DNA of 14,066 nucleotides from a virus. The stretch lies in the UHGV virus genome UHGV-0237147, one strand, 5' to 3'. The translations under genes were made by a program, and so were the position numbers. This document shows, one piece after another, positions 8,844 to 12,653 of the stretch. Position 1 is the stretch's first letter, and every line of letters begins with the position of its first letter. The notes beneath the pieces were generated by a model, which was not told the origin of the DNA, searched no databases, and saw nothing but the letters and a program-made list of their open reading frames with translations.

Positions 8844-9242
8844 TCAACCCACAGCTGGACATATAACCACCTCTTTTTTATATGCCGTTATGGTTATCTC
8901 AACTTTTCCCTTCGGTACTATCGGTCCCCATTCCACCAGCATGCGCTTAATCTGGCTGTCGTCTTCCCAGACACCCGCATGCGTCAGCGCGTCAAACAGG
9001 GCTTTGTTGTAATTATCGATATCCCGGCGGCGCGCATCCGGCGGGTACAGAGTGATTTCTACCGCTGCCAGTTCAGTCGATGGCTTCGGGAGACGTCGTA
9101 ATTGCTCAATGATCGCCACGCAGGCAGCGCTCTGGTATTTACGGCCATCAGCGCTAATGAGGTGACGACCGGCCAGCGGCCCCTTGTTAGGGGAGCGCCA
9201 GTAAGTGTTCACGCTCGGAGGAAAAGGCAGGATCAATTTCAC
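8844..9242 (-). CDS. rusA: Holliday-junction resolvase RusA (crossover junction endodeoxyribonuclease), 132 aa, GTG start
   Basis: N-terminus MKLILPFPPSVNTYW and the acidic motif RRRDIDNYNKALFDALTHAGVWEDDSQI match the RusA family; GTGA overlap with the methyltransferase stop; RBS GGGGAGAGG. Confidence 0.85.
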   Translation of the reverse strand: MKLILPFPPSVNTYWRSPNKGPLAGRHLISADGRKYQSAACVAIIEQLRRLPKPSTELAAVEITLYPPDARRRDIDNYNKALFDALTHAGVWEDDSQIKRMLVEWGPIVPKGKVEITITAYKKEVVICPAVG

Positions 9243-10558
9243 GCGGCCTCTCCCCGCATATTGCGAACAAGTTCAGAAGCGGCAGTAATGATTTCGCTGG
9301 TGGCCGTTCGTTCCAGCCAGAGTTGATTGATGTTGGCTTTCAGCTTGTTCTGCTGTGAATCATCCAGCATGTCAGCGCCATCCACCTGATCGAATACAAT
9401 TCCAACCTCCAGCGGCCAGATACGGGACTCGGGAAGCGGATCCGCTACTGGTTTAGCTTTCTCACGGATGTGCATGCGGATCTGGCGAATATTGGACCAA
9501 CTGGAAACATCCAGGCTTCCCATAGCTGCAATGAAATCAGTACTGTTCATGCCATATTCACCAGATGCTTCAAGGGCAACAGTCCGAATACGTTCCGACA
9601 TATCCAGGTGCGCAGCAGCGTCATCGAATTCAATCGACAACAGCCACTCATCCACACCGAACAAAATACTCTCACGAATAAGCAGCTTCGCTTTGTCGAT
9701 CGTTAATGGTGATACCTGAGTGAATTCCGGTGCTTCGACAGAATCCGCCGCCCAGGTATGCCCAAACTTCGATTCACTGAATGTGTATTCTTCTTTATCG
9801 CCGAACGCAGCTCTAACGCATGCCCACGCCTCTACACCGCTGACATCAAAAATATCTTTCTGGGTGAGTGGCAACTCTACTTCTGGCTTGTCAGCTACAG
9901 ATGGTGTGGCAGTTGCAGGTTGAGACTTGCTGACAGCAAATTGCGCCAAAGTCATAAACGCCTGCCCTTTTGCCTCCAGTTCTGTACGGTTGATATAGCT
10001 GAACCGCTCACCACGCCATGACTTATCGAATACAGCTATGGCACCGGCAAAAAACGCGCTGGTGGGCTTCTGTTTTTCGTCAGCAGGTACAAACCACACA
10101 GGCAGATCGAACCCAATGCGCCCGCGAATGAATACAATGTGATCGGCATCTTCCGGCCACCACGTTTCACTCGGCGCGGCTTTTATCAGGAATACATAGC
10201 GACCGCCCTTTTCGCGCTGGGCTGCTGCGTACTTCATGATGTGCGTCATACCAGTGATCGCCTGATTCTCGTGGTACTGCGAACGGCTATACGGTGGGTT
10301 GCCATAACCTGCACCACCTAGTTCTGCCAGACGTTCAGACCAATCCTGGGTCAGCGCGTTATCTTCGGCGGTGTACCATGCCGGGCATTTCGCGTTGTCG
10401 TCGTCAGCAAACAAGTCCAGAACTAATGGGCCAAATAACGCGTTGATCCCCCAGAAAAGCAGATCAGGTGTCCTCCACTGATCTCCAACTTCTTTCAATT
10501 CGTGAGCTGGTTTACTGCGCAGTTCAGCCAGCGCCTGGCAATACTTATTTGGCATCAT
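9239..10558 (-). CDS. Phage Dam-family DNA N6-adenine methyltransferase fused to an acidic C-terminal domain of about 240 aa of unknown function (439 aa total)
   Basis: N-terminal roughly 190 aa carry WRTPDLLFWGINALFGPLVLDLFADDDN and the NPPY catalytic motif (GNPPYSRS) typical of phage Dam methyltransferases; the remainder (after a Pro/Ala/Thr linker QPATATPSVADKPEVELPL) is acidic and unrecognised. ATGA overlap with the upstream replication-gene stop. Confidence 0.75.
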   Translation of the reverse strand: MMPNKYCQALAELRSKPAHELKEVGDQWRTPDLLFWGINALFGPLVLDLFADDDNAKCPAWYTAEDNALTQDWSERLAELGGAGYGNPPYSRSQYHENQAITGMTHIMKYAAAQREKGGRYVFLIKAAPSETWWPEDADHIVFIRGRIGFDLPVWFVPADEKQKPTSAFFAGAIAVFDKSWRGERFSYINRTELEAKGQAFMTLAQFAVSKSQPATATPSVADKPEVELPLTQKDIFDVSGVEAWACVRAAFGDKEEYTFSESKFGHTWAADSVEAPEFTQVSPLTIDKAKLLIRESILFGVDEWLLSIEFDDAAAHLDMSERIRTVALEASGEYGMNSTDFIAAMGSLDVSSWSNIRQIRMHIREKAKPVADPLPESRIWPLEVGIVFDQVDGADMLDDSQQNKLKANINQLWLERTATSEIITAASELVRNMRGEAA

Positions 10559-11421
10559 GAGCGGAACCCCGAATTTTCTGGCAGTGAATAGTCAACATTT
10601 TGGAAGTTTGCGCGGCTGGCTGAGTTAGTCGCCCATTTACCGTTAACGCGTTCAGGTCGCCCAGCGGCAGACCATTTGGTCGCGCTTTGCAGGTAACCGG
10701 GGAAGTTTTTTGGAATAAACAGAGTTGCCGGGCGGAGGTATTGAGCCTGCTCGCTATCACGCCAATCAGCGTTTTTGTAATCCACCACAAGGCACAGATC
10801 ATCAACAGTGAACTGTTCCCGCAGACGGGCGCGAATGTTCTCCAGCGACGTGCTGCATACCTGGTAGCGTGAACCAGTTGTCTGGTTCAGGTAAGACAAA
10901 ACCTGTCTGGCCTGATCAGTAATCACAACCTCAGGGTCGGGTTGCGCCGCAACCGGACAAGAGGGTTTTGAAGTTACTTGTGGATCTTGTTTTGATTTTA
11001 CTGACGGATCCCCGCCAGATTCTGACGGGTCAAAACCTCCGTTTTTGCCAGATTTCGACGGGTCAGTTTTTGAGGCGTCAAATTTTGATGCGTCAGATTT
11101 TGACGTGTCAGAATCTGACAGTTGAGAAAATGCGGCAGCCTGAAGTTTCGCCACATTCAGTCGGTACACGTTCGACGCATTACGGTTACCATTACGGCGC
11201 TGTGTACGCGTGAGCCAGCCATCTTTTTCAAGCTTTGCGATTGCCGTTCTGATAGTGCTCGGCCCAGCGCCAAGCTGGCGAGCAATAGTTTCAATAGACG
11301 GCCAGCACACGCCCTCATCGCTGCTGAAATCAGCAAGGCGAGCCATGATCGCGACACTAGACAACTTCATGCCCGACGCCGCGCAACCATCCCATACGTA
11401 GCCGGTTAATTTAGTGCTCAT
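10555..11421 (-). CDS. Replication initiation protein (lambda O-like: N-terminal HTH DNA-binding domain, low-complexity Ser/Lys/Asp linker, conserved phage C-terminal replication domain), 288 aa
   Basis: N-terminal winged-helix-like region (ETIARQLGAGPSTIRTAIAKLEKDGWL); C-terminal region (QARQVLSYLNQTTGSRYQ ... DYKNADWRDSEQAQYLRPATLF) resembles the conserved phage replication C-terminal domain (TIGR02220-like, from memory); iterons lie inside the gene as for lambda ori. Confidence 0.7.
   Translation of the reverse strand: MSTKLTGYVWDGCAASGMKLSSVAIMARLADFSSDEGVCWPSIETIARQLGAGPSTIRTAIAKLEKDGWLTRTQRRNGNRNASNVYRLNVAKLQAAAFSQLSDSDTSKSDASKFDASKTDPSKSGKNGGFDPSESGGDPSVKSKQDPQVTSKPSCPVAAQPDPEVVITDQARQVLSYLNQTTGSRYQVCSTSLENIRARLREQFTVDDLCLVVDYKNADWRDSEQAQYLRPATLFIPKNFPGYLQSATKWSAAGRPERVNGKWATNSASRANFQNVDYSLPENSGFRS
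11002..11111. repeat. Iteron array (candidate origin of replication): imperfect repeats with palindromic cores TGAyGnGTCA at 11023-11032, 11056-11065, 11071-11080, 11087-11096, 11101-11110, and a partial copy at 11002-11011
   Basis: Read directly from the sequence: tgacgggtca, cgacgggtca, tgaggcgtca, tgatgcgtca, tgacgtgtca, each flanked by a short T/A run; located inside the replication gene where they encode the SK[ST]D low-complexity linker. Confidence 0.7.
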
Positions 11422-11677
11422 GATCGTCCGTTATCTCCCTGAACTTTTGCCTGAATTGCTCAAGTGGGCTGAAGCATTCGTGCAGGTAGCCATCACGCAG
11501 ATAGATAACGCGCTGTGTTTCTGGCTCCCAGCGGATAACACGGACTGGCACTCCACGGTGGTCTTTGAACCTTCGGTTAAGTTCGCGCACAGGCGTTTTG
11601 CCCTCCGGTTGTAGACCCCCACAATTGAAACCGCCCTACTGTGGTTACACGGAACCCAGCGGTTTGATAATCTGCGT

Positions 11678-11836
11678 TCATACCGAAACAACGGAGTACC
11701 CGAAACCGGGATCATCCTGAGTTGCGGTAGACGGTTAAAAGCCGTTAAACTGCTCATGCGGATTATTTCTCCATACTCGAAGAGTTGTTCGCCAAGTCGC
11801 CCGGAGCTGCACACTCGCGGGCGTCACTCTTTTCTG
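11678..11836 (+). ncRNA. Candidate OOP-like antisense RNA (plus-strand transcript antisense to the 3' end of the CII-like gene)
   Basis: Sigma-70-like promoter GTTACA (11644-11649) - 16 bp - GATAAT (11666-11671) on the plus strand; intrinsic terminator at 11797-11836 inside the 3' end of the minus-strand CII-like gene; no convincing plus-strand ORF with an RBS in between. Inference by analogy to lambda OOP. Confidence 0.3.
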
Positions 11837-12314
11837 CGACACAAAAAACTCGATAAAGAAGCGCTACGTGCTCCTGGAACTTCGCGATAACCTGATAGCT
11901 GTTTTCCTCAATCTGAGCGCGCTCATCTGCGTCAATTACCCCATCAGCCGTGGCTTTACGTACAAAATTAGAATGACGGCCTATCCATTCGATGGACTCC
12001 ATCAGGCGCTGGTTGATATCGGCGTTATCCAGATCATCAACATCTGCCAGCGGTACAAATACGCCCTGAGAATGGCGCGCAACGGCATCAGCTATATGAG
12101 TTGAACCACCAGCACGTTGTAAAACCATTGCCCAGCCCAGTGGGAAGATCTGGTCGCCGTCAACACGAAGGCGGTTAAACAATGCGTTCTCTGTCACACC
12201 CAACCATTCCGCCGCCTCAGCATATCCACCAGGCAGATCGGTAATCGTTTTTTTAATCGCTACCACCAGCCAGGAAGGCTGACGCTCGACTTTCCAAATA
12301 GGTTCGTTACCCAC
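11763..12314 (-). CDS. CII-like early regulator (YdaT-family HTH protein), 183 aa, GTG start
   Basis: Occupies the cII position directly downstream of the Cro-like gene (8-nt overlap); HTH-like segment GGYAEAAEWLGVTENALFNRL; RBS GGGAGGAG upstream of GTG 12314; family assignment from memory of YdaS/YdaT pairs. Confidence 0.5.
   Translation of the reverse strand: MGNEPIWKVERQPSWLVVAIKKTITDLPGGYAEAAEWLGVTENALFNRLRVDGDQIFPLGWAMVLQRAGGSTHIADAVARHSQGVFVPLADVDDLDNADINQRLMESIEWIGRHSNFVRKATADGVIDADERAQIEENSYQVIAKFQEHVALLYRVFCVAEKSDARECAAPGDLANNSSSMEK
11797..11836 (+). terminator. Plus-strand rho-independent terminator embedded in the 3' end of the minus-strand CII-like gene
   Basis: GC-rich stem CGCCCG (11798-11803) / CGGGCG (11818-11823), extendable with one bulge, followed by TCACTCTTTTCTG; no T-run on the opposite strand. 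Confidence 0.45.
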
Positions 12315-12552
12315 GGCTCCTCCCTTCTTCCTGTGGTTTGAGTTTTACTGAAGCTTCGCTACGCTTTTCGTAAAGGTCGGGATGGAAAACCAATTTCCCC
12401 CCAGTCCGATAGGCTGCTTCTGCTGCACGTCCTTTCGGGATTAGGCGACCAGTTCTATTACGCCACTGGTAAACGGCCTCGCTTGTGATTCCAAAAAATT
12501 CGGCAACTTTCTCAGTACTGCCGAAGTAGTTTTCAATATCATCGGTTGTCAT
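12307..12552 (-). CDS. Cro-like repressor (YdaS family HTH protein), 81 aa
   Basis: Divergent from the CI-like gene; RBS AGGAGG 4-5 nt upstream of ATG 12552; motif VAEFFGITSEAVYQWRNR ... FHPDLY matches the YdaS-type Cro-like family as I recall it. Confidence 0.7.
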   Translation of the reverse strand: MTTDDIENYFGSTEKVAEFFGITSEAVYQWRNRTGRLIPKGRAAEAAYRTGGKLVFHPDLYEKRSEASVKLKPQEEGRSRG

Positions 12553-12653
12553 AACGCCTCCTTAGCTAAGTTTGATTAGATATTAATAACCAATCTAACT
12601 TTGGTCAATAAAAACTAAGATTGCTTAGCCTTTTAATTTTTTATGGTGTTCAA
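12553..12653. promoter_or_regulatory. Divergent promoter/operator region between the Cro-like and CI-like genes
   Basis: Perfect palindrome CTTAGCTAAG (12561-12570); inverted repeat CTAAG-attg-CTTAG (12615-12628); inverted repeat TTAGAT (12575-12580) ... ATCTAA (12593-12598); AT-rich 101-bp spacer between divergent start codons. Confidence 0.6.

Follow-up and report, generated by a model that had tools for sequence, protein, structure and literature searches.

An ECS003-type antisense RNA predicted opposite ymfL and ymfM in a lambdoid immunity region, and the overlap of ymfM with a DUF4222 gene

In the lambdoid immunity and replication region of the virus genome UHGV-0237147, the interval between a ymfL-type gene, which encodes a CII-like regulator, and an O-like replication initiator gene is filled by a ymfM-like gene and a DUF4222 gene. 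On the opposite strand, a conserved promoter (11722-11751) is predicted to make an RNA of ~77 nt, of the type of the Escherichia coli K-12 RNA ECS003, that would end at a hairpin with a T-tract at 11796-11836. We give this reading as a whole a probability of roughly 75%. ECS003 itself is already known in K-12; the element described here is a further, predicted member of an otherwise uncharacterised kind of RNA. All positions are in the numbering of the window, that is, the whole stretch of 14,066 nt that was analysed, in which the early-right operon lies on the minus strand as judged from the listing of open reading frames (ORFs) and from domain searches.

Two overlapping genes downstream of ymfL

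The gene that precedes the interval (11763-12314, minus strand; 183 aa) encodes a YmfL-type protein, which matches NCBIfam NF041471 phage_reg_YmfL (E=2e-55), Pfam Phage_CP76 (E=1.8e-9) and the CII-like activators of PHROG 101 (E=1e-57), and the interval is followed by the O-like initiator gene (10555-11421, minus strand; 288 aa; Pfam HTH_36 and Phg_2220_C). An earlier, sequence-only reading of the window had placed the CII-like stop (11763) and the O-like start (11421) correctly; 341 bp lie between them, and the lambda counterpart is indeed much tighter, with 32 bp from the cII stop to the O start (38653 being the last position of cII and 38686 the first of O). However, the long spacer that this distance was taken to represent was false, an artefact of missed genes. 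That is, 11422-11762 codes in two frames, the minus strand of the interval is fully coding, and no spacer follows ymfL. The ORF at 11431-11757 (minus strand; 108 aa, ATG at 11757), which had been described as the only minus-strand ORF, Ser/Arg/Cys-rich and probably not coding, is a homologue of K-12 ymfM (BLASTP: 38% identity in a full-length alignment, E=4e-15; PHROG 1170, E=7e-17). At the protein level, its N-terminal half is conserved across more than 35 loci, and such clear coding conservation in homologues was the outcome that the sequence-only reading had itself listed as speaking against its claim. A second minus-strand ORF, at 11411-11590 (59 aa, GTG start), is the DUF4222 gene, which matches Pfam PF13973 with E=6.4e-17 and 61.3 bits (cut-off 27) over 48 of the 53 profile positions, and PHROG 1343 with E=6e-33.

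The position of ymfM directly after ymfL agrees with the synteny of the K-12 prophage e14, where the order is also ymfL-ymfM-replication gene, with a DUF4222 ORF nested in ymfM, and where the gene at the matching position is ymfM (b1148), annotated 'cell division inhibitor YmfM'. The Shine-Dalgarno motif of the window gene, GGAG at 11769-11772, lies 9 nt upstream of the ATG at 11757 and within the last ~70 nt of ymfL, which form the main target stretch of the antisense RNA discussed below. The 172 bp at 11591-11762 are constant in length in the closest E. coli homologues, and in the ymfM frame the changes among homologues are synonymous and conservative. Scanning one genome per species with the DUF4222 alignment gave 35 loci with the same layout in Citrobacter, Enterobacter, Kluyvera, Kosakonia, Pantoea, Mixta, Raoultella, Atlantibacter and others. 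The ymfM-frame ORF is open in all loci with sufficient upstream sequence and starts 149-182 nt before the DUF4222 start, adjoining the ymfL stop and behind a conserved GGAG; it stops 160-169 nt into DUF4222 in all loci but two (L005 and L040), where it continues into a downstream Rha-type gene. In the non-overlapping part, the codon-position nucleotide diversity of 0.19/0.10/0.25 is that of a sequence coding in the ymfM frame.

The N-terminal ~55 residues are conserved as protein across Enterobacterales (MxSLTAFNRLPQLRMIPVPGxPLFRYERRxSNRWVPCNHSRAxxIVGVYYRRAK), with at least three sequence types of the YmfM N-terminus. An AlphaFold2 model built from 34 sequences has a pLDDT of 85-93 for residues 11-60, modelled as three strands and a helix, and below 50 for residues 66-108. 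The YmfM-like protein is thus predicted to consist of a folded domain (residues ~1-60) and a low-complexity, disordered tail (~57-108), and a Foldseek search of the model against the PDB returned nothing with E <1. YmfM (b1148) is SfiC, the SOS-inducible cell-division inhibitor of e14 (Ansari et al., bioRxiv 10.1101/2020.11.19.390815). The window product resembles it in following ymfL directly, in length (108 versus 112 aa) and in the nested DUF4222 ORF, and differs in that its N-terminal domain is of a divergent sequence type. By homology, the window gene would be a division-inhibitor-type gene, filamentation and the block of the Z-ring being known from K-12 fragments alone.

DUF4222 lies within the 3′ half of ymfM in another frame and has its own Shine-Dalgarno motif (GGAGGG, 11601-11606); its start codon is ATG in 29 of 36 distinct homologues and GTG in the window, and its stop codon and the O-like gene's start overlap. 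The sole characterised DUF4222 protein is RgdR (ECs1581), a prophage regulator of the type III secretion genes of the enterocyte effacement locus (LEE) in enterohaemorrhagic E. coli (EHEC) (Flockhart et al. 2012, PMC3378721). Both RgdR and the window protein are small, basic and prophage-encoded and share the Pfam domain, but RgdR has 99 aa and resides in a P4-like cryptic prophage, whereas the window protein has 59 aa, is nested in ymfM and shares a stop/start overlap with a replication gene. Two of the DUF4222 loci, in a metagenome-assembled genome labelled Geobacteraceae (L013) and in Vagococcus sp. WN89Y (L016), carry the enterobacterial prophage module with 83-86% protein identity, and these placements are likely due to contamination or mis-binning.

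A conserved promoter inside ymfM

The promoter of the predicted antisense RNA consists of a -35 hexamer TTGCGG (11722-11727, plus strand), which falls on ymfM codons 11-12, and a -10 hexamer TAAACT (11746-11751, plus strand) on codons 3-4. When the antisense strand of 33 distinct loci was aligned and the hexamers were counted in 26 distinct homologues, K-12 included, the -35 was TTGCGG, TTGCGA or TTGCTT in all 26, while the -10 was TAAACT in 20, TAAATT in three and TACACT in three. The spacer between them is 18 nt in 26/26, and the complement of the ymfM start codon follows 6 nt past the -10. The same pattern is visible in the codons of ymfM: the only variants seen are AGT and AAT at codon 3 and TTA and GTA at codon 4, and codon 12 is CAA in all 26 homologues, whereas codons 5-10, between the hexamers, vary freely. 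In K-12, the experimentally mapped start site lies 7 nt past the -10 hexamer. TTGCGG-18-TAAACT, inside ymfM codons 3-12, is strictly conserved and is predicted to be a weak sigma-70 promoter.

The promoter spacer also holds a small inverted repeat, ACGG...CCGT, at 11731-11745 (plus strand; ymfM codons 5-9). Among type-A homologues the fifth pair of the repeat varies (T.G, C-G, T-A; e.g. GCGGCTTTTAGCCGT and ACGGTTATTTACCGT), and neither the e14-type nor the Kosakonia-type sequences have the repeat; its position is upstream of the antisense start.

A covarying terminator hairpin inside the 3′ end of ymfL

The GC-rich hairpin followed by TCACTCTTTTCTG that the sequence-only reading had noted at 11797-11836 is present on the plus strand at 11796-11836. 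It forms an 11-pair stem with one bulge, in which 11796-11806 pairs with 11814-11825 around the loop CTGCACA, and ends in the tail ACTCTTTTCTG. The comparison across related prophages that this reading had suggested was carried out, and it showed the hairpin to be both conserved and covarying: 99.1% of the cells are paired and 6 of the 11 pairs are changed on both sides, compared with 0 of 500 shuffles reaching the observed value and 32-52% in slid controls. Because several of the compensatory changes replace residues of YmfL, it is the structure that is constrained and not the protein. The alignment contains 14 G.U cells but not one A.C cell, as would suit a plus-strand RNA, and 26 of 30 homologues have a tail with at least 4 T in 12 nt.

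Assigning the strand by hairpin stability was tried and abandoned, the free energy being the same on both strands; since stability does not discriminate, the strand was assigned from the G.U pattern and the T-tract, from the promoter and from the K-12 data. A simple terminator pattern scan made no call at all and left this hairpin unflagged, because its stem is bulged and its T-run begins 4 nt after the stem, and the reality of the hairpin rests on conservation and covariation, not on that scan. As pattern scanning called neither the conserved promoter (8/12 consensus positions) nor the terminator, it is of little use either way.

The predicted RNA is a relative of ECS003

Between these two conserved signals, a cis-antisense RNA of ~77 nt homologous to ECS003 is predicted at 11758-11834 (plus strand), both ends being placed by homology. 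Its predicted start, near G11758, faces the ymfM start codon, and its sequence is the complement of the last ~70 nt of ymfL together with the region of the ymfM Shine-Dalgarno motif. Its predicted fold, a 5′ stem-loop followed by the terminator, has a free energy of -23.8 kcal/mol.

ECS003 is a cis-antisense small RNA of the K-12 e14 prophage (Shinhara et al. 2011, BMC Genomics 12:428, PMC3175480). It was the most abundant cis-antisense candidate of K-12 and was detected by deep sequencing and Northern blot, with 116 nt mapped, a highly covered core of 78 nt, and on the blot a band of ~70 nt and a faint one of ~120 nt; a sigma-70 promoter is predicted for it, and its start was mapped experimentally 3 nt inside the mapped 5′ end; its level was constant under the conditions tested, and masking of the ymfM ribosome-binding site is the role that its authors proposed (PMC3175480). 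ECS003 maps exactly to 1203709-1203824 on the minus strand of MG1655, opposite the end of ymfL and the start of ymfM (1203822), and holds the same hairpin as window positions 11796-11825. The window RNA and ECS003 are identical at 63 of 84 aligned positions (75%), and their global alignment scores 41, compared with -11.8 +/- 4.6 for shuffled sequences, none of 1000 of which reach it. Both RNAs face the 3′ end of ymfL and the ribosome-binding site of ymfM, share the promoter layout and the hairpin terminator, and agree in length (major species of 70-78 nt versus ~77 nt predicted in the window), whereas the window copy differs in facing another ymfM sequence type, in having no TG extended -10 motif and in having a better T-tract. 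By sequence homology, the predicted window RNA is a member of the ECS003 family.

A covariance model derived from the alignment gives a single match in the window, at 11755-11849 on the plus strand (93.6 bits). It also matches ST64B, YeP1 and PSTCR8lys, none of which was in the training set, and there the element starts opposite the start codon of the gene after a CP76-type CII gene; no match was obtained in lambda or in DUF4222 loci without a CP76-type CII gene. Rfam gave no match for the whole window at gathering thresholds, nor for 11400-11950 at E<=5. The family has one experimental sighting, ECS003, and no Rfam family.

An analogue of lambda OOP

The OOP RNA of lambda is 77 nt long, is made from promoter pO, pairs with the 3′ end of cII and promotes RNase III cleavage. 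The sequence-only reading had proposed an OOP-like antisense RNA in the window, and the supported part of the proposal is a plus-strand RNA whose terminator is the hairpin in the CII-like gene's 3′ end, whereas the promoter given for it was wrong. When the geometries are compared directly, the two RNAs are alike in being short, of similar size and transcribed from their own promoter just downstream of a CII-type gene, towards cI, and in terminating inside the 3′ end of that gene. They share no sequence homology: homology to OOP was considered and rejected, as 56 of 1000 shuffles reach the alignment score, which is not significant, and the covariance model is silent in the lambda locus. The target differs as well, the window protein matching Phage_CP76 and NF041471 YmfL only, and not lambda CII. 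Moreover, the window RNA, unlike OOP, would also cover the ribosome-binding site of the downstream division-inhibitor gene, and its promoter lies inside a coding sequence whereas that of OOP is located in an intergenic gap. The predicted RNA is analogous, not homologous, to OOP. This means that e14-, SfII/SfIV/ST64B-type lambdoid phages and some Stx-converting phages would carry a positional analogue of lambda OOP.

Proposed dual coding in ymfM and DUF4222

The last ~52 codons of ymfM overlap DUF4222, the ymfM tail being in the +1 frame and DUF4222 in the -1 frame relative to ymfM. At the overlap, the signature of constraint changes from the ymfM frame to the DUF4222 frame. That is, the codon-position diversity becomes 0.085/0.37/0.14, which is a DUF4222 signature, and the DUF4222 frame dominates the constraint. 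The ymfM frame is nevertheless stop-free over the 52 codons in 36/36 distinct DUF4222 sequences, while random synonymous recoding leaves it open with a probability of only 0.03-0.18. Where a Leu or Val codon of DUF4222 is followed by a codon beginning with A, an ending in A or G would make TAA or TGA in the ymfM frame; none of the 112 such codons ends in this way, all being NTC or NTT with T and C interchanging freely, whereas 53 of 96 Leu/Val codons end in A or G where no stop is possible (Fisher p=3e-23, an upper bound on the significance, since the sequences are taken as independent). Furthermore, 4 of 5 distant DUF4222 genes without ymfM overlap have that frame interrupted by stops. The evidence thus indicates that both overlapping frames are kept by selection.

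In Yersinia phage YeP1 (L043, 510-671) and Providencia phage PSTCR8lys (L042, 481-690), homologues of the YmfM N-terminal part occur as stand-alone ORFs of 53 and 69 aa, which stop 11-16 nt past the DUF4222 start; the antisense RNA element is present in both. This suggests that the overlapping tail of ~50 codons arose later by loss of a stop codon. Because YmfM-N stands alone in these two phages, the long tail is regarded as a lineage-specific extension that was afterwards kept open.

In phages of the ST64B (L047, 1058-2215), SfV, mEp460 and Stx2c types, the ymfM frame passes through DUF4222 and encodes a protein of 385 aa (sb41) that has Ash and Rha domains. DUF4222 is then nested out of frame near the 5′ end of this ORF, and PGAP begins the Rha protein at an internal codon.

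The same DNA is annotated in conflicting ways. The K-12 RefSeq annotation (L004, 4323-4681) calls ymfM only, without the nested DUF4222 ORF (L004, 4502-4681; TTG start), whereas PGAP calls DUF4222 only in other E. coli genomes (L001-L003) and leaves the ymfM ORF uncalled, the annotation of the closest E. coli matches reading 'YmfL family', 'DUF4222' and 'conserved phage C-terminal domain'. Each of these current schemes records one half, and PHROGs has both families. No paper noting the overlap was found in the literature searched. The overlap bears on how the SfiC phenotype is interpreted: the published SfiC/YmfM experiments in K-12 used fragments or deletions carrying both reading frames, and because of this the phenotype is not formally assigned to one of them.

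Alternative explanations

The sequence-only reading as it stood, a long non-coding spacer at 11422-11762 and an antisense RNA of ~165-190 nt (instead of ~77 nt) running from a promoter at 11644-11671 to the hairpin at 11797-11836, seems to us scarcely probable at all. The motif GTTACA-16-GATAAT is present on the plus strand at these positions, outside the conserved unit, with 9 of 12 consensus positions matched and a good -10 in the window, and its -35 is invariant in 23 type-A homologues, where A2 and T6 of the -10 are kept in 16/23; a longer transcript from this site would also cross the downstream promoter and reach the same terminator. Nevertheless, the interval is coding in two frames, and the -35 is invariant because it encodes a conserved Cys-Asn of YmfM. 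The -10 is poorly conserved, being GATAAT in 5/23 type-A homologues, having lost A2 or T6 in 7/23 and decaying to GATACT, GCTATT or GATACC in most, and sites of this kind occur at chance level (3 in 1.7 kb versus 1.5 +/- 1.2 expected in the scan). The conserved promoter lies ~80 bp further right, the K-12 RNA and its mapped start begin at the ymfM start codon and not upstream, and e14-type ymfM has no counterpart of the sequence. We regard the site as fortuitous, though a minor transcript from it is possible in this element. It is also very unlikely, in our judgement, that the hairpin acts in the sense (minus-strand) mRNA only, as an RNase III or processing site or as a structure tuning the coupling of ymfL and ymfM, or that it is a mere consequence of the conserved YmfL peptide DARECAAPG, with no functional antisense RNA being made. 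Such a role would suit a hairpin within coding sequence that is equally stable on both strands and has an imperfect plus-strand T-tract and a weak antisense promoter. However, the compensatory changes alter YmfL amino acids and keep the pairs, so the protein is not the constraint; read as sense RNA, the 14 G.U cells would turn into C.A mismatches, the reverse case never being seen; the promoter hexamers are fixed at constant spacing through the otherwise rare codons AGT, TTA and CAA; and the K-12 homologue is an abundant RNA visible as a band on a Northern blot. As for the genes, an explanation in which one overlapping frame only gives a functional protein (the tail being untranslated or irrelevant, with a product of ~55 aa or DUF4222 alone), or in which a -1 frameshift fuses the two, is unlikely. 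It would account for the second codon position of the ymfM frame being the most variable in the overlap, for the predicted disorder of the tail, for the short ORFs of the Yersinia and Providencia relatives, which end just past the DUF4222 start, and for DUF4222 being in the -1 frame. Against it, stops are avoided in 36/36 sequences through biased synonymous choice, which would be unneeded if translation ended or shifted early. A fusion YmfM-N::DUF4222 was rejected as a candidate: DUF4222 retains its own conserved start codon and Shine-Dalgarno motif, no slippery heptamer of the form X XXY YYZ is found at the junction, and the 37 protein clusters contain no clean in-frame fusion, only two singleton chimeras with a frame switch in mid-gene. 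The latter, P0023 (Enterobacter cloacae, 114 aa) and P0017 (JGI, 111 aa), appear to be single-genome frameshifts or assembly errors.

Several points weigh against an ECS003-type RNA from the conserved promoter and against the gene pair as proposed here. The promoter matches just 8 of 12 consensus positions and does not have the TG extended -10 motif of the K-12 copy (TGTTAAACT versus CGTTAAACT), because of which output here could be low. The T-tract is interrupted, begins 4 nt past the stem and is poor in 4 of 30 homologues, and the hairpin has about equal stability on the two strands (-19.4 versus -19.8 kcal/mol), so that a role in the sense mRNA is possible. The fold of the whole RNA is ordinary for its composition (z=-1.5). 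The window RNA is predicted from sequence, the transcript that has been seen being that of the K-12 copy, and the literature searched contained no functional test of ECS003 or follow-up on it. As to the genes, translation of the ymfM tail is deduced from stop avoidance only, and the tail is absent in the Yersinia and Providencia relatives.

Proposed mode of action

In the mechanism that we propose, ymfM directly follows ymfL, and its tail runs across DUF4222, a gene with translation initiation of its own that is in turn coupled to the O-like gene. The promoter at 11722-11751 would start the RNA of ~77 nt at about G11758, and the hairpin and T-tract in the 3′ end of ymfL would end it. Made constitutively in the lysogen, this RNA could pair perfectly with any early-right transcript across the ribosome-binding site of ymfM and the 3′ end of ymfL. 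Pairing may then block translation of a toxic division inhibitor and/or provide an RNase III substrate that lowers the level of the CII-like YmfL; we infer repression of ymfM and/or ymfL by the RNA. Upon induction, strong rightward transcription would out-titrate it. Such a scheme would unite two principles, that of lambda OOP and that of a type I antitoxin, the likeness to the latter arising because the RNA covers the ribosome-binding site of a toxic gene. That ymfM and DUF4222 form a genuine dual-coding pair with a selected, overprinted tail of ~50 codons, and that the ECS003-family RNA serves as an antitoxin-like brake on it in lysogens, is a tentative proposal to which we would give somewhat less than even odds. 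If it were true, the published K-12 SfiC/YmfM phenotype would still await assignment to a reading frame.

Surrounding genes and distribution

The region is found in about 2000 of 5426 complete E. coli genomes (megablast) and in 102 phage records. Further towards the immunity end, the ORF listing and domain searches place a Cro gene at 12307-12552 on the minus strand and a CI/LexA-like repressor gene at 12621-13280 on the plus strand. Downstream of the O-like gene are genes for a Dam methylase, RusA and a KilA-N protein. Within the O-like gene itself, 11016-11118 contains five copies of a ~15-bp repeat at a spacing of 15 bp (consensus about CAGATTTTGACGxGTCA), which look like origin iterons within an initiator gene, as in lambda O. 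The Dam protein (9239-10558, minus strand) has 439 aa, of which residues 19-200 only make up the Dam N6-adenine methyltransferase domain; its C-terminal ~240 residues have no Pfam match, and its homologues differ in length, the coding sequence being 1320 bp in L001 and 894 bp in L002.

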